DNA of 64,000 nt, taken from the NCBI RefSeq assembly GCF_013122565.1, contig NZ_CP053258.1; one strand, 5' to 3'. The position numbers were made by a program, and so were the translations under genes. Below, piece after piece: positions 8,361 through 58,552 of the stretch. This stretch comes from Escherichia coli (lineage in GTDB: Bacteria; Pseudomonadota; Gammaproteobacteria; Enterobacterales; Enterobacteriaceae). Each line of letters starts with the position of its first letter. Positions within the stretch are counted from its first letter, which is position 1. The notes under the pieces were generated by a model. It had not been told where the DNA came from and searched no databases. It was given only the letters and a program-made list of their open reading frames with translations.

Positions 8361-8437
<77 letters not shown>

Positions 8438-8516: not shown

Positions 8517-8612
8517 TTCGACTCGACGTAGGCCTGATAAGACGCGCCAGCGTCGCATCAGGCAAATGTGCCGGCCCATTGTCGGATGCAGCGTACCCGT
8601 CTTATCCGACCT
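8517..8612. repeat. REP/BIME-type palindromic units
   Basis: Palindromes gcctgataagacgcgccagcgtcgcatcaggc and gtcggatgcagcgtacccgtcttatccgac typical of enterobacterial REP elements. Confidence 0.7.
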
Positions 8613-16532: not shown

Positions 16533-16605
16533 GAGAGAAAACCCCCGCACGTTGCAGGTATGCACCTGACAACACCACGGGGGCTAATCTTGACTCTAGA
16601 CCACT
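16533..16605 (-). ncRNA. rdl: Rdl-type antisense RNA (type I antitoxin), copy 1; ends approximate
   Basis: Minus-strand segment antisense to the ldr leader ending in a GC hairpin plus U-tract (ccccgcacg.. / gggggttttctctc); placement by analogy to K-12 rdlD. Confidence 0.45.
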
Positions 16606-16649
16606 CAAGAATAGCCGCGAAACGTTGTCATTACAACACAGGCGGCTAT

Positions 16650-16757
16650 ATGACGCTCGCAGAGCTGGGCATGGCCTTCTGGCATGATTTAGCGGCTCCG
16701 GTCATTGCTGGCATTCTTGCCAGTATGATCGTGAACTGGCTGAATAAGCGGAAGTAA
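16650..16757 (+). CDS. ldr: Ldr-family small toxic peptide (type I toxin), copy 1
   Basis: 35-aa peptide MTLAELGMAFWHDLAAPVIAGILASMIVNWLNKRK, matching remembered LdrD-type toxin. Confidence 0.8.
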   Translation: MTLAELGMAFWHDLAAPVIAGILASMIVNWLNKRK

Positions 16758-17015
16758 CGTGTCATGCGGGCGTCAGGCTGCCGTAATGGCAATTTGCGCC
16801 CGGACCAGGCCGCAGGGGTGAAACTCTGCGGCCTTTTTCGTAAGAAAAATGCAACGGTTGCAAGCGGATAATATTCTGCGGAATGCGCAGCACAGAGTGA
16901 AGACGTGACGGATTTCGGAACAGAAAAACAGTCGTAGAATCAGCGGCAAGCCGGAAAGGTTCCGGTGAGGCGCAATGTTGCGGGGGCTTTATCCCTGGTG
17001 GCATTGGTTGCTGGA

Positions 17016-17088
17016 GAGAGAAAACCCCCGCACGTTGCAGGTATGCACCTGACAACATTACGGGGGCTAATCTTGAACCCAAACAACT
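17016..17088 (-). ncRNA. rdl: Rdl-type antisense RNA, copy 2; ends approximate
   Basis: Same arrangement in second repeat unit. Confidence 0.45.
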
Positions 17089-17132
17089 CAAGAATAGCCG
17101 CGAAACGTTGTCATTACAACACAGGCGGCTAT

Positions 17133-17240
17133 ATGACGCTCGCAGAACTGGGCATGGCCTTCTGGCATGATTTAGCGGCTCCGGTCATTGCTGGCATTCT
17201 TGCCAGTATGATCGTGAACTGGCTGAACAAGCGGAAGTAA
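17133..17240 (+). CDS. ldr: Ldr-family small toxic peptide, copy 2
   Basis: Identical 35-aa peptide in second repeat unit. Confidence 0.8.
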   Translation: MTLAELGMAFWHDLAAPVIAGILASMIVNWLNKRK

Positions 17241-17498
17241 CGTGTCATGCGGGCGTCAGGCTGCCGTAATGGCAATTTGCGCCCGGACCAGGCCGCAGGG
17301 GTGAAACTCTGCGGCCTTTTTCGTAAGAAAAATGCAACGATTGCAAGCGGATAATATTCTGCGGAATGCGCAGCACAGAGTGAAGACGTGACGGATTCCG
17401 GAGCAGAAAAACAGTCGTAGAATCAGCGGCAAGCCGGAAAGGTTCCGGTGAGGCGCAATGTTGCGGGGGCTTAATCCCTGGTGGCATTGGTTGCTGGA

Positions 17499-17571
17499 GA
17501 GAGAAAACCCCCGCACGTTGCAGGTATGCACCTGACAACATCACGGGGGCCATTCTTGAACCTGAACAACT
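17499..17571 (-). ncRNA. rdl: Rdl-type antisense RNA, copy 3; ends approximate
   Basis: Same arrangement in third repeat unit. Confidence 0.45.
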
Positions 17572-44716: not shown

Positions 44717-44785
44717 GCTGCCTCATTTTCCGCCTGGCTGGACTATCTTTAGGACTGGCACAGGAAGAATATGAGGAAGCGAACG

Positions 44786-46846
44786 ATGAGCAAGGCAGGC
44801 AAAATAACCGCTGCGATTTCAGGGGCTTTCTTGTTGTTGATTGTCGTGGCGATCATTTTGATTGCAACTTTTGACTGGAATCGACTCAAACCGACCATCA
44901 ACCAGAAAGTCTCTGCGGAGTTGAATCGTCCGTTCGCTATCCGTGGCGATCTGGGCGTGGTGTGGGAGCGGCAAAAACAGGAAACCGGCTGGCGCAGCTG
45001 GGTGCCGTGGCCCCATATACACGCGGAAGACATCATTCTCGGCAACCCACCAGATATTCCCGAAGTCACGATGGTGCATTTGCCACGCGTAGAGGCAACG
45101 CTGGCACCGCTGGCGCTGCTGACCAAAACGGTCTGGCTGCCGTGGATCAAGCTCGAAAAGCCCGACGCGCGCCTGATTCGCCTCTCTGAAAAGAACAATA
45201 ACTGGACGTTTAATCTTGCCAACGATGACAACAAAGACGCGAATGCAAAGCCGTCGGCATGGTCGTTTCGGCTGGATAATATTCTGTTCGATCAAGGGCG
45301 GATCGCTATTGATGACAAAGTAAGCAAAGCGGATCTGGAAATTTTTGTTGATCCGTTAGGCAAGCCGCTGCCGTTCAGTGAAGTTACTGGATCGAAAGGT
45401 AAAGCGGATAAAGAAAAGGTCGGCGATTACGTTTTTGGCCTGAAGGCGCAGGGACGTTATAACGGTGAACCGCTCACGGGTAAGGGGAAAATTGGCGGTA
45501 TGCTGGCGCTGCGTGGCGAAGGGACGCCGTTTCCGGTACAGGCTGATTTCCGTTCAGGTAATACCCGTGTTGCTTTTGATGGCGTCGTGAATGACCCAAT
45601 GAAGATGGGCGGTGTCGATTTACGGCTTAAATTTTCTGGCGATTCACTGGGTGATCTCTATGAACTGACGGGCGTTCTGCTGCCCGATACCCCGCCGTTT
45701 GAAACGGATGGTCGGCTGGTAGCGAAAATCGACACAGAAAAATCGTCGGTCTTTGATTATCGCGGCTTTAATGGGCGCATTGGCGATAGCGATATCCACG
45801 GTTCTCTGGTCTACACCACCGGCAAGCCACGACCAAAACTGGAAGGTGATGTCGAGTCGCGGCAATTGCGGCTGGCGGACCTGGGACCGTTGATTGGCGT
45901 TGATTCCGGGAAAGGAGCAGAAAAGTCGAAACGGTCTGAACAGAAGAAGGGTGAAAAAAGCGTTCAGCCTGCGGGCAAAGTGCTGCCTTATGATCGCTTC
46001 GAAACCGATAAATGGGACGTTATGGATGCCGATGTTCGCTTCAAAGGCCGACGTATCGAGCATGGCAGTAGCCTGCCGATTAGCGATCTTTCTACTCATA
46101 TCATCCTCAAAAATGCTGACCTGCGCCTGCAACCGCTGAAATTTGGCATGGCGGGCGGCAGCATTGCGGCGAATATTCATCTGGAAGGCGATAAAAAGCC
46201 GATGCAGGGGCGGGCAGATATTCAGGCTCGTCGACTGAAACTGAAAGAACTGATGCCCGATGTGGAACTGATGCAGAAGACGCTGGGGGAAATGAACGGT
46301 GACGCGGAACTACGCGGTAGCGGTAACTCGGTGGCGGCACTTTTAGGCAACAGTAACGGCAACCTGAAACTGTTGATGAATGACGGGCTGGTGAGCCGCA
46401 ACCTGATGGAGATTGTTGGGCTGAATGTCGGCAACTACATTGTCGGTGCGATATTTGGTGACGATGAGGTGCGGGTGAACTGCGCGGCGGCGAATCTTGA
46501 TATTGCCAACGGCGTGGCGCGCCCGCAGATCTTTGCTTTCGATACGGAGAACGCGTTGATTAACGTTACCGGCACGGCAAGTTTTGCTTCGGAACAGCTG
46601 GATTTGACTATTGATCCGGAGAGTAAAGGAATTCGGATTATCACACTGCGTTCGCCGCTGTATGTGCGTGGGACGTTTAAAAATCCGCAGGCTGGGGTGA
46701 AAGCCGGGCCGTTGATTGCTCGCGGAGCCGTTGCGGCGGCACTGGCAACGCTGGTTACGCCAGCGGCGGCGTTACTGGCGCTGATCTCACCTTCCGAAGG
46801 GGAGGCTAATCAGTGTCGGACGATTTTGTCGCAGATGAAGAAGTGA
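44786..46846 (+). CDS. yhjG: AsmA-family inner-membrane-anchored protein YhjG
   Basis: 686 aa from ATG at 44786 (MSKAGKITAAISGAFLLL...) with gaggaag SD; N-terminal TM anchor. Confidence 0.88.
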   Translation: MSKAGKITAAISGAFLLLIVVAIILIATFDWNRLKPTINQKVSAELNRPFAIRGDLGVVWERQKQETGWRSWVPWPHIHAEDIILGNPPDIPEVTMVHLPRVEATLAPLALLTKTVWLPWIKLEKPDARLIRLSEKNNNWTFNLANDDNKDANAKPSAWSFRLDNILFDQGRIAIDDKVSKADLEIFVDPLGKPLPFSEVTGSKGKADKEKVGDYVFGLKAQGRYNGEPLTGKGKIGGMLALRGEGTPFPVQADFRSGNTRVAFDGVVNDPMKMGGVDLRLKFSGDSLGDLYELTGVLLPDTPPFETDGRLVAKIDTEKSSVFDYRGFNGRIGDSDIHGSLVYTTGKPRPKLEGDVESRQLRLADLGPLIGVDSGKGAEKSKRSEQKKGEKSVQPAGKVLPYDRFETDKWDVMDADVRFKGRRIEHGSSLPISDLSTHIILKNADLRLQPLKFGMAGGSIAANIHLEGDKKPMQGRADIQARRLKLKELMPDVELMQKTLGEMNGDAELRGSGNSVAALLGNSNGNLKLLMNDGLVSRNLMEIVGLNVGNYIVGAIFGDDEVRVNCAAANLDIANGVARPQIFAFDTENALINVTGTASFASEQLDLTIDPESKGIRIITLRSPLYVRGTFKNPQAGVKAGPLIARGAVAAALATLVTPAAALLALISPSEGEANQCRTILSQMKK

Positions 46847-46890
46847 TGAGGTTGGATTGTGTTTGCTGGTGAGTTCGGGAGCAGCGTGTT

Positions 46891-47065
46891 CCCCTCACCC
46901 TAACCCTCTCCCCAAAGGGGCGAGGGGACTGTTTTGTGCGTGTTGAAACAACGAGTACCGCTTTTCCGTTCACTTTCTGGGGGGAGGGCTGTTATGTTCG
47001 CGATATAACATCTCGCTCCGCTTTTCTCCCTCTCCCTTTCAGGGAGAGGGCTGGGGTGAGGGTGG
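46891..47065. repeat. GC-rich imperfect palindromic intergenic repeats (two inverted copies)
   Basis: cccctcaccctaaccctctccccaaaggggcgagggg at 46891-46928 and its inverted relative ctctccctttcagggagagggctggggtgagggtg near 47027-47065. Confidence 0.7.
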
Positions 47066-47080
47066 CAGCCCGCACGATAC

Positions 47081-48403
47081 TTACAACGACTGATGTCGCG
47101 TCTCATGGGTCAGCAGCAGGGCGATTAACGTCAAGCCAGCCATCGCCGCCAGATATAACCCCACCGCACCTAACCCGTAGTTAGTCTGCAACCAGGCTGC
47201 GATATACGGCGCAACGGAAGCCCCGAGAATCGACGATACGTTGTAAGAGAACGATGCTCCGGTGTAACGCACTTCTGTCGGAAACAGCTCTGGTAACAGC
47301 GCACCCATCGGCCCGAAGGTCAGCCCCATCAGACTTAACCCCAGCAGCAGGAAGGCAAAAACCAGAATGGGGTTGCCAGAACCGAGCAGCGGGTTAAAGG
47401 CGAACAGCGCGAACAGGATGATCAGCGTGGTGATAATTACCATGCTTTTACGGCGACCAAAGGCATCAGCCAGTAATCCGGCGACTGGCACCATCACGCC
47501 AAAACCAATAACTGCCATCATCAGCATCCACAACACTTCGTTACGTGGCAGGCCAAGCCCAACTGGCGCGGCGGCGGTACTAAAGGTCATAGAGTAGACC
47601 GTCATGATGTAAAACAGCGTATAGGTTGCCAGCATGATGAAGGTACCGAGCACCGTGACGCGAACATGTTTGGTCAGCAGCGTACCCAGCGGGATCTTCA
47701 CCTGTTTTTTCGCTTTAGCGACTTTCTCAAACACCGGCGACTCATGCAGCGACACGCGAACATACAGGCCGATAATGACCAGCACCGCCGAGAAGATAAA
47801 CGGCACACGCCAGCCCCAGCTCATAAACTGCTCGTCGGTCAGTAGCCAGGAAAGCAGCAAGAAAGTGCCGTTGGCAAAGAAGAAGCCAATCGGTGCGCCC
47901 AGCTGCGGGAAGGAGCCATACAGTGCACGTTTACGCGGTGGGGCGTTTTCAGTCGCCAGCAGCGCCGCGCCGCCCCATTCACCGCCTAAGCCCAGACCCT
48001 GACCAAATCGAGCCAGCGCCAGCAGCAGCGGGGCGAAAATACCAATCGTGGCATAGCCCGGCAGCAGACCAATCACCACGGTCGAAATCCCCATCGTTAG
48101 CAACGAGGCGACCAGCGTCGCTTTACGCCCAACGCGATCGCCAAAATGACCAAATACGGCAGAGCCAATGGGGCGCGCGACGAAGGCGATGGCGAAGGTG
48201 GCGAGCGACTGTAGCGTTGCTGCCGTTGGATCGCCCTGCGGAAAGAAGATATGCGGAAACACAATAACGGCCGCAGTGGCGTAAATGTAAAAGTCGAAGA
48301 ACTCAATGGCCGTGCCAATGAGAGAGGCGACAAGGACTTTATTACGCGAGTTGATCGGCGTGTATTCTTGCTCGTGGTCGAGTGTTGTGGCTGTTGCTTG
48401 CAT
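47081..48403 (-). CDS. yhjE: MFS transporter YhjE
   Basis: 440 aa, 12-TM sugar-porter-like composition; matches remembered YhjE. Confidence 0.9.
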   Translation of the reverse strand: MQATATTLDHEQEYTPINSRNKVLVASLIGTAIEFFDFYIYATAAVIVFPHIFFPQGDPTAATLQSLATFAIAFVARPIGSAVFGHFGDRVGRKATLVASLLTMGISTVVIGLLPGYATIGIFAPLLLALARFGQGLGLGGEWGGAALLATENAPPRKRALYGSFPQLGAPIGFFFANGTFLLLSWLLTDEQFMSWGWRVPFIFSAVLVIIGLYVRVSLHESPVFEKVAKAKKQVKIPLGTLLTKHVRVTVLGTFIMLATYTLFYIMTVYSMTFSTAAAPVGLGLPRNEVLWMLMMAVIGFGVMVPVAGLLADAFGRRKSMVIITTLIILFALFAFNPLLGSGNPILVFAFLLLGLSLMGLTFGPMGALLPELFPTEVRYTGASFSYNVSSILGASVAPYIAAWLQTNYGLGAVGLYLAAMAGLTLIALLLTHETRHQSL

Positions 48404-48720
48404 AATCTTTTCTTATTTTTTGGCTAACGAATAGCCATATTACGCACAGCAAAAGTGATATTTCAATGTGTAACAAATCGCGGAAATGGTCAAAAATAAG
48501 GCAAAAAGGGGATAATGTTTAGGCCAGTGATTTTTCTTCTATGAAATGCTTCACATAATTTTATAAATAGTGGATAAAACTGGTTTCAGGTTAAATAAAA
48601 GTTACCAACTGGATTTATATGCTGGGGTTATGAGTTGGTATGAAATTGTTTGCTCCTGAAGAGATGTGGTTTCAGGTGGTTATGTGCATGTCATTGCCTG
48701 GTCTCTGGCTGGCTTGTACC

Positions 48721-48757
48721 CCCTCACCCTAACCCTCTCCCCGGAGGGGCGAGGGGA
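48721..48757. repeat. Third copy of the GC-rich palindromic repeat
   Basis: ccctcaccctaaccctctccccggaggggcgagggga, near-identical to the copy at 46891. Confidence 0.7.
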
Positions 48758-48794
48758 TCGACCGTGCGTTTATCAGGCATTATAAACCAATGAA

Positions 48795-49808
48795 TTACCG
48801 CTGCGTTTTCCCCGGCATTCGCGGGTCGTCTTTATATTCGGCGGTGGCAATCCACGCCGCGCAAAACAGCGTCAAACGGGCGAAGAAGTAGAAAAATGCC
48901 ATCAGCCCCAGCACGGAACCAAATGCTGCGCCAGAGGGGGATTTCATCAACGATGGCAGGGTGTAGGTCATCACGATTTTAATCACTTCAAAACCAATAG
49001 CAGCCAGAAATGTTCCGCGAATCAGGGCTTTTTTGCGCGGACGGTGGCGCGGTAACCGCCAGAAGATCCAGAAGAAAAGCAGATAGTTGGCGAAGATGGA
49101 AATCGCCAGGCCAATCAACCGCCACGTCGGTTTCAGCCACTCAATGCTGTTCAGGTGCAGGGCGCTAATAATCATTTGCTGCGCCGAACCGGCAACCGAG
49201 GTGATCGAAAGCGTCACAATCAGCGCAATCAACAAACCAATCAGCGAAATAAAATCACGCAGATATTTTACCCAGAACTTCTCCTGATCTTGCGGCGAGC
49301 GTTCCCAGACATCGCGCGACTGGGCACGAATCGCTTCACGCAGGTTACCCATCCAGTTGATGCCGGAATAAAGTGCCACCGCCAGGCCGACAAGCCCTAC
49401 AGTCGTACGCTGCTGAACGGCGGTGTTGATGGTGTTTTTCAATGTGGCGGCTAGCGTCGGATCGCTGATGTTTTGCAGAATTTTGTCGAAGATATCCTGT
49501 AGCAACATCGGATGGGAGGCCAGCACAAAGCCCCCTGCGGCAAACGACACCATCAAAATCGGGATCATCGACAAAAATGAGAAATAGGTGATAGCTGCAC
49601 CAAACTGGTTACCCAGCCGATCGTTAAAGCGTTCTGTCGCGCGAATCAGGTGCGCAATAACCGGTTGGCGTTGGACTTTTTCGGCAGTGGTGGTGACGGT
49701 TTCCAGCGCCTGGCTAACTTTGCCGCCTTTCTCGCTATTATCCAACGGCTTAATCGGCTCGTGCTCCAGATCCTGGGTGGGACGTTTGATCTCGTTTTCC
49801 TGCGTCAT
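48795..49808 (-). CDS. yhjD: Inner-membrane protein YhjD (YihY/virulence-factor BrkB family)
   Basis: 337 aa polytopic membrane protein; matches remembered YhjD. Confidence 0.88.
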   Translation of the reverse strand: MTQENEIKRPTQDLEHEPIKPLDNSEKGGKVSQALETVTTTAEKVQRQPVIAHLIRATERFNDRLGNQFGAAITYFSFLSMIPILMVSFAAGGFVLASHPMLLQDIFDKILQNISDPTLAATLKNTINTAVQQRTTVGLVGLAVALYSGINWMGNLREAIRAQSRDVWERSPQDQEKFWVKYLRDFISLIGLLIALIVTLSITSVAGSAQQMIISALHLNSIEWLKPTWRLIGLAISIFANYLLFFWIFWRLPRHRPRKKALIRGTFLAAIGFEVIKIVMTYTLPSLMKSPSGAAFGSVLGLMAFFYFFARLTLFCAAWIATAEYKDDPRMPGKTQR

Positions 49809-58184: not shown

Positions 58185-58200
58185 AGTTTTACTCAGGCAT

Positions 58201-58306
58201 AAAAAAAACCCGGCATAGGGGACCGGGAAGAGGATAGTCTGCCGTCTCCAGACTAATAAACCGTTATAACACTCCCTGTTGGCACGGGAAACTTTGTGCT
58301 CTCAGT
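58201..58306 (-). ncRNA. gadY: Small RNA GadY (antisense to gadX 3-prime UTR)
   Basis: Reverse complement of 58201-58306 reads actgagagcacaaagtttcccgtgccaacaggg...cccggtcccctatgccgggtttttttt, matching remembered GadY including its terminator. Confidence 0.8.
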
Positions 58307-58552
58307 AAGTTAAATATAACTTTTACTGGAAATAAGATCAGCCATTTTTTTATAAACATAAGCTATACGCTGTGTGAAAATATATTCTTATTGCATTTAC
58401 TAATTTTTAATCAACTGTTATGCAAAACTACTTTTTGGATAAATTTTGGTCCTACCAAATATGGCAGTTTTTGCACTAAGAAACAGTCTGGCATCATTTC
58501 ATTAGTATACTGAAATTGAAATAATCGCAGTAATGAAATATAAGGGATAATC

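Follow-up and report, generated by a model that had tools for sequence, protein, structure and literature searches.

The closest described relatives of the repeats reported here form a single family under three names: BoxC (Bergler 1992), PIT, for potential intrastrand triplex elements (Hoyne & Maher 2000, 2002), and the TMECO triplex motifs (Holder 2015, PMC4666352). BoxC was first noted upstream of envM/fabI (Bergler 1992). The TMECO consensus is 5'-CCCTCNCCC-N3-6-GGGNGAGGG-N3-GGGNGAGGG-3' (Holder 2015, PMC4666352). Elements are sorted by the second loop, which is TTA in type A and CCG or a variant in type B, and the stem has no more than one mismatch (PMC4666352). Literature counts for E. 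coli K-12 range from 23 to 32 copies, with 23 found by consensus (PMC4666352), and a repeat survey gave the length of BoxC as 56 bp (from the literature) or 50 bp (from the survey's own model). The catalogue of Holder 2015 holds 63 TMECO loci, and 3,610 copies were reported in 262 proteobacterial genomes (PMC4666352). Type A and type B oligonucleotides, studied as isolated single strands, formed an intrastrand purine-motif triplex by CD and NMR, and in vivo DMS footprinting did not confirm the triplex (Holder 2015, PMC4666352). PIT elements stop DNA polymerase in vitro (Hoyne & Maher 2002, as reported in PMC4666352).

We examined a window of 64,000 nucleotides (64 kb) of E. coli DNA in which a first-pass annotation had noticed three GC-rich palindromic repeats around the gene yhjE. 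Judged from their sequence, these three repeats and a fourth, decayed copy are ordinary members of the known BoxC family. The best explanation as a whole combines BoxC membership, a chance haplotype around yhjE and a passive structural role, and we estimate its probability at roughly 0.85. The repeats and their neighbours are arranged as follows.

44771..46846, + strand: yhjG, AsmA-family protein, convergent with yhjE (ORF; annotation of matching E. coli records)
46888..46939, core 46892-46926, - strand: BoxC/TMECO copy 1, type A mm (exact consensus match)
46929..47027, no strand: spacer from copy 1 to copy 2, locus-specific (single-copy in E. coli genomes)
~46958..46990, + strand: fourth, decayed B-type BoxC copy (aligned with copy 2 and with four B-type copies of K-12)
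47015..47075, core 47028-47062, + strand: BoxC/TMECO copy 2, type B (exact consensus match, alignment with K-12 copies)
47081..48403, - strand: yhjE, MFS transporter, with repeats on both sides (ORF; annotation of matching E. coli records)
48716..48769, core 48721-48755, - strand: BoxC/TMECO copy 3, type A mm (exact consensus match)
48795..49808, - strand: yhjD, inner membrane protein (ORF; annotation of matching E. coli records)

The repeat search and the motif search agreed with the layout described at first pass, in which the motif occurs at 46891 and 48721 in the same orientation and in inverted form near 47027-47065. The three copies in the 64-kb window span 46891-46928, 47028-47062 (inverted) and 48720-48757. 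Copies 1 and 3 form a 38-nt direct repeat with 95% identity, separated by 1,829 bp, and copy 2 is the inverted partner of copy 1 (35-nt arms, 83% complementarity, 101-nt gap). Copies do lie on both sides of yhjE, with yhjG ending at 46846, yhjE at 47081-48403 and yhjD ending at 48795. Allowing up to three mismatches, the first-pass motif matched only three places in the window, where shuffles expect 0.01. The BoxC consensus matched copies 1, 2 and 3 with 0 mismatches and nothing more in the window, with 0.00 matches expected by chance.

On the G-rich strand the unit is tripartite, running from a C-block through a short loop to a complementary G-block and then through a 3-nt loop to a second G-block. 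It is thus more than a plain palindrome. To the three intact matches the decayed copy at ~46958-46990 has to be added. Copies 1 and 3 are of the 'type A mm' form, with TTA as the second loop and a single stem mismatch. On the - strand, the core of copy 1 reads CCCTCGCCCC-TTT-GGGGAGAGGG-TTA-GGGTGAGGG and that of copy 3 reads CCCTCGCCCC-TCC-GGGGAGAGGG-TTA-GGGTGAGGG. The copy 1 core is identical to K-12 nos. 7, 11 and 15 in Table 1 of Holder 2015 (fepB-entC, ygfF-gcvP and frlR-yhfS). The core of copy 2 is CCCTCTCCC-TTTCA-GGGAGAGGG-CTG-GGGTGAGGG; its second loop, CTG, recurs in K-12 no. 8, a copy assigned to type B. A direct check found the same element in K-12 ahead of fabI, at the locus where BoxC was first noted.

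Comparison of six further K-12 loci revealed that the conserved unit reaches into the flanks. Type A elements end in ...GTC on the hairpin side and have GAAC on the tail side, and type B elements are flanked by GC.CGTTTTCT and T..TTCGCAC. Copies 1 and 2 have the K-12 flanks of their respective types, in agreement with a BoxC size of 50-56 bp. In copy 1 both the GTC on the hairpin side and the GAAC on the tail side are conserved, and window positions 46887-46940 matched further genomic BoxC copies at 94%. Copy 2 has K-12 B-type flanks on both sides (5' GCTCCGCTTTTCT, 3' T..CGCAC). The flanks of copy 3 are less typical than those of copies 1 and 2. The decayed copy precedes copy 2 by 62 nt, in register; its 5' flank CCGCTTTTC is kept, its C-arm is eroded to CGTTCACTT, and its G-block GGGGGGAGGG and the CTG are retained.

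The copies resemble described BoxC/PIT/TMECO elements in their exact consensus, in the presence of types A and B, in their shared flanks and intergenic position, and in varying among strains with small deletions. They also resemble them in that a type A copy stands in inverted pairing with a type B copy. The geometry of the pair is different: the five inverted BoxC pairs of K-12 are all B(+)..A(-), with G-tails inward and cores 16-29 nt apart, whereas the window pair is A(-)..B(+), with hairpins inward, cores 101 nt apart and the additional, decayed B copy in between. Across E. coli genomes the family was multi-copy and dispersed, with a median of 5-6 BoxC places per genome detectable by megablast, and the copies in the window are intergenic.

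An Rfam scan of positions 46000-49500 returned a chance-level match only (E = 0.69), and a scan of the whole window at gathering thresholds returned nothing at the copies. The supplements of Holder 2015 contain no yhjE, yhjD or yhjG; the table there that names genes is confined to K-12, a strain lacking BoxC at this locus. The catalogued family had been missed at first pass, where the repeats were said only to differ from REP; comparison with known repeats gives BoxC/PIT/TMECO with an exact consensus match. The repeats around yhjE thus belong to a family that was already known, catalogued since 1992 and studied biophysically. As the rediscovery of a known repeat family, they carry little weight for new biology, and for annotation they are best labelled as BoxC/TMECO and not as yhjE regulators.

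Strain variation at the two sites was surveyed in 5,426 complete E. coli genomes, with the left allele counted at a coverage of at least 80%. At the left site (yhjG/yhjE), the window-type BoxC spacer was present in 1,598-1,600 of the 5,426 genomes (29%) and the K-12-type REP allele in 3,578 of 5,426 (66%). UTI89 showed a third state at this site, a near-empty 40-bp spacer with only a small native hairpin. At the right site (yhjD/yhjE), 599 of the 5,426 genomes (11%) had the window-type segment with copy 3, and the other strains examined had REP/BIME. K-12 MG1655 carries REP/BIME at both of these intergenic sites and BoxC at neither. Its homology with the window breaks off at the stop codons of yhjG and yhjE and within the final codon of yhjD. 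This codon lies within the variable segment and encodes Arg in BoxC alleles and Pro in K-12.

Combinations of the two alleles were estimated from an evenly spaced sample of ranked matches in which kinship was ignored: left only was found in ~27%, right only in ~8%, neither in ~60% and both in ~2-3%. Genomes with both alleles occupied roughly rank 1 to a rank somewhere between 93 and 184 of 5,432 records. Independence of the two sites predicts ~177 such genomes, or 3.2%, close to the ~2-3% found. The exact configuration of the window, with the full pair plus copy 3, occurred in five genomes. The left and right BoxC alleles segregate independently, and because of this the bracketing of yhjE is a rare chance haplotype. 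With frequencies of 29% and 11% at the two sites and ~2-3% for both, it is therefore a rare haplotype of two independent polymorphisms. The association with yhjE proposed at first pass did not hold up: the family is abundant and known, and the sites are filled by REP/BIME or are near-empty where BoxC is not present. The position of BoxC beside yhjE marks no yhjE-specific, functional or mobile module.

We then considered whether the copies serve the neighbouring genes. Copies 1 and 2 sit between the convergent yhjG and yhjE, and copy 3 sits just past yhjD. Counted from the stop codon of the adjoining gene, copy 1 begins after 45 nt (yhjG), copy 2 ends at a distance of 18 nt (yhjE) and copy 3 follows after 39 nt (yhjD); the yhjE start codon is 317 nt downstream of copy 3. 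Every copy is thus 18-45 nt past a stop codon, in slots that K-12 fills with REP/BIME, which would suit a role as transcript 3'-end elements (terminators or 3' exonuclease barriers) for yhjG, yhjE and yhjD, like that of REP elsewhere. RNA folding, which the first-pass annotation had asked for, bore out its expectation of stable hairpins, with single units at -19.7 to -26.5 kcal/mol and z ~ -2; this stability also favours a 3'-end role. The left BoxC allele does not have the small native hairpin of K-12 and UTI89 (TTGCCGGATGTCTGACATCCGGCAA), which leaves the BoxC hairpins as the sole strong structures past yhjG and yhjE. They could have taken over a 3'-end role at the left site. In the direction of yhjG, copy 1 presents a 10-bp GC stem followed by the U-rich GACUGUUUUGUG, and it is the only copy with a U-rich stretch.

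Other observations argue against such a role. None of the three copies was picked up in a consensus scan for terminators and promoters. The copies resemble Rho-independent terminators as GC-rich stem-loops shortly past stop codons, but copies 2 and 3 lack a proper U-tract: AGAAAAG comes after copy 2 read with yhjE, and UUAGGGUGAGGG after copy 3 read with yhjD. Tests on other copies of the family found PIT elements to have no promoter or terminator activity and no in vivo effect, as the work is summarised in a later paper (Hoyne & Maher 2002, per PMC4666352). The family is also not tied to 3' ends: K-12 copies are found in a divergent promoter region (fepB-entC), upstream of genes, between co-directional genes and between convergent genes, and BoxC therefore has no consistent functional position. 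A 3'-end function for these copies is, on balance, rather unlikely, and the first-pass suggestion of terminators or mRNA-stabilising elements gained no positive support.

We infer that the BoxC copies have no locus-specific function here. Most likely, 3' intergenic DNA tolerates the repeats, whose consequence would be structural and passive. In this passive role they would give the transcripts of yhjG, yhjE and yhjD 3' untranslated regions with GC-rich hairpins.

The inverted pair has a structure of its own. RNA folding of copy 1, the spacer and copy 2 together gave one long hairpin of -95.8 kcal/mol (z = -5.6). Such a unit might be mobile, in the manner of a MITE or REPIN, and might compete with REP/BIME for the slots; REP and BoxC alternate at both slots, the exact consensus is found in distant lineages, and the head-to-head (-)(+) arrangement was seen in 28 of 34 close pairs among the matches listed, which come mostly from Mitsuaria chitosanitabida. 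The likeness to REPINs and MITEs extends to the inverted pair folding as one long hairpin; the body of the unit is different. The spacer between copies 1 and 2 occurred in exactly one place in each of 1,600 genomes and in a second place in none, and the pair is therefore no multi-copy MITE. No target-site duplication was evident at the allele boundaries, the alleles are stable haplotypes common to many genomes, and we found no evidence of movement. REPs are present in hundreds of copies per genome and are linked to RAYT transposases. BoxC is present in tens of copies and is not known to have a mobilising enzyme or associated transposase. Membership in a MITE or REPIN family was accordingly rejected on the single-copy body and the boundaries, and a mobile unit of this kind is quite improbable. 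A broader version, in which BoxC and REP/BIME are alternative occupants of the slots through targeted delivery or exchange and the head-to-head pair with its variable spacer is a mobile or functional unit, is decidedly improbable.

Another reading makes yhjE a mobile or excisable cassette, a recombination module with copies 1 and 3 as its direct-repeat termini. In its favour, these copies are 95% identical and flank yhjE with 1,829 bp separating them, and the BoxC family has been associated with variable loci (PMC4666352). Against this, 5,419 of the 5,426 complete E. coli genomes had yhjE in this position, whatever its flanks. The two flanking alleles mostly occur apart, at the frequencies given above, the sequence outside the repeats is collinear with K-12, and the repeats are only 38 nt long. 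We consider an excisable yhjE cassette highly improbable, and favour BoxC membership with a chance haplotype. Within yhjE itself, differences from K-12 and LR-28 were almost all at third codon positions.

That the copies are chance resemblances or mere REP/BIME variants has next to no probability: their GC-richness, palindromic form and intergenic position are all that speaks for it, three matches stand against 0.00-0.01 expected from shuffles, the 64-kb window has no match to the REP consensus (GCCGGATGCGGCGTGAACGCCTTATCCGGCCTAC-like) even when three mismatches are allowed, and K-12 REPs from the same two sites fail to align with the copies. The first-pass statement that these are not canonical REP sequences was correct. 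BoxC and REP/BIME are alike as short GC-rich palindromic intergenic repeats and share the same two slots, which REP/BIME occupies in K-12 and most strains. They are unlike in that their sequences are unrelated and not homologous, and REP has neither a third block nor triplex potential. The locus is a clean natural example of REP/BIME and BoxC in the same intergenic slots of different strains. A candidate REP remnant to the left of copy 1 (GGGAGCAGCGTG compared with GGATGCGGCGTG) was rejected, since it agrees with the semi-conserved tail-side flank found in further type A copies.

The left allele also varied in length. Of the 1,600 left-allele genomes, 1,469 were full-length and ~131 were without 62 bp. 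At the deletion junction the decayed B copy is joined to copy 2 at a shared GAGGGCYG, so that the hairpin of copy 2 is gone while both G-blocks remain, as would be expected after slippage or unequal exchange between two tandem B-type units. Small intergenic deletions and 'mutated TMECOs' are much commoner around TMECOs than at control sites (Holder 2015, PMC4666352). The natural 62-bp deletion fits this published tie of BoxC motifs to local instability, and the locus offers a clean natural example of a deletion between tandem BoxC copies in support of it. Of the recombination-prone module suggested at first pass, the instability finds support in the published work and in the 62-bp deletion; the module does not, as there is no yhjE module and the alleles at the two sites are independent.

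The composition of the unit suggests how such deletions may arise. Self-complementary, directly repeated blocks would promote slippage or unequal recombination and so lead to small indels. In DNA folding the C-block paired with either G-block, and a triplex has been proposed because of this dual pairing. In single-stranded nucleic acid the C-block (CCCTCNCCC) can pair with either G-block, and in single-stranded DNA the G-rich strand is able to adopt an intrastrand triplex of the purine motif. The step that leads to instability may then be the formation of a hairpin or triplex as the DNA is replicated. This mechanism is unproven, because the triplex was detected neither in double-stranded DNA nor in vivo (Holder 2015, PMC4666352).

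To place the motif outside E. coli, one genome per species was scanned with the exact consensus, which returned at least 120 loci from few genomes and gives no balanced taxonomic picture. Among the matches listed, most were from M. chitosanitabida, a betaproteobacterium with more than 100 copies, and others were from a Methylomirabilota MAG and a Contendobacter MAG. A copy from Contendobacter, again among the matches listed, was a near match to E. coli type A. The close pairs among the matches listed had spacers of 15-272 nt. In the head-to-head pairs among these matches, the spacers often held short tandem repeats.

In the window strain, both intergenic slots flanking yhjE (46847-47080 and 48673-48797) were occupied by BoxC, an E. 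coli intergenic repeat family also known as PIT or TMECO. Comparison of the window with L001 (K-12), L006 (UTI89), L007 and L008 revealed REP/BIME at both of these positions in K-12 and most strains. The left slot of UTI89 was nearly empty: its 40-bp spacer contained only the hairpin TTGCCGGATGTCTGACATCCGGCAA.

The start of the right variable segment fell within yhjD itself (window 48795-48800; K-12 L001 1371-1376). The final residue of YhjD was Pro in K-12 versus Arg in strains with the BoxC allele, and in the six non-K-12 strains examined the YhjD accessions WP_000191259.1 and WP_000191257.1 followed the allele.

Divergence of yhjE (47081-48403) within E. coli is unusually high. K-12 and UTI89 were only 93.7% identical over the gene and the window and UTI89 93.4%, with nearly all differences of K-12 or the window from UTI89 at third codon positions. 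Identity to the window over the yhjE region stayed at or below approximately 98.4% in all complete genomes.

Approximately 131 E. coli genomes, including strains 222 and 2012C-4221 (L004 and L005), carried a 62-bp deletion in the left slot (window 46958-47020) that joined copy 2, the type B copy next to yhjE, to a degraded BoxC copy of type B. Among the best-ranked 60 records, all deletion-variant genomes possessed the right-hand BoxC copy, suggesting that the deletion variant is one haplotype lineage.

Distant bacteria were rich in the exact E. coli TMECO consensus among the matches listed:

L023-L134, mostly Mitsuaria chitosanitabida
L015-L022, Methylomirabilota MAG
L030-L032, Contendobacter MAG

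Among these listed matches, the majority of close pairs were inverted in a head-to-head arrangement. The spacers of these pairs varied between 15 and 272 nt, frequently with short tandem repeats inside them. The listed Mitsuaria copies had a GCTTGC loop in common, as well as TCTTCGGG as their 3' flank. Upstream of fabI in K-12, a type A BoxC copy was followed 157 nt on by a hairpin-only B-like remnant (L003 3397-3419), head-to-head as in the window pair; the remnant overlaps the 3' end of ycjD, which encodes a DUF559 protein. A 38-nt BoxC perfectly matching copy 1, the type A copy of the left slot, was seen at 1627-1664 of the 154,743-bp E. coli plasmid record NZ_CP074792.1. This was one of only 7 plasmid places, versus more than 25,000 chromosomal ones.

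Elsewhere in the window, RNA genes were matched as follows, the last three above the Rfam gathering threshold:

16536-16601, - strand, rdlD antitoxin sRNA
17019-17084, - strand, rdlD antitoxin sRNA
17502-17567, - strand, rdlD antitoxin sRNA
58196-58309, - strand, GadY sRNA
8361-8434, + strand, tRNA gene
8531-8611, - strand, naRNA4 (nucleoid-associated RNA family), adjoining the tRNA gene

The three rdlD matches are in tandem, spaced approximately 483 bp apart, which would imply three putative ldr/rdl toxin-antitoxin units at 16536-17567; the corresponding K-12 locus presumably has a single ldrD/rdlD.
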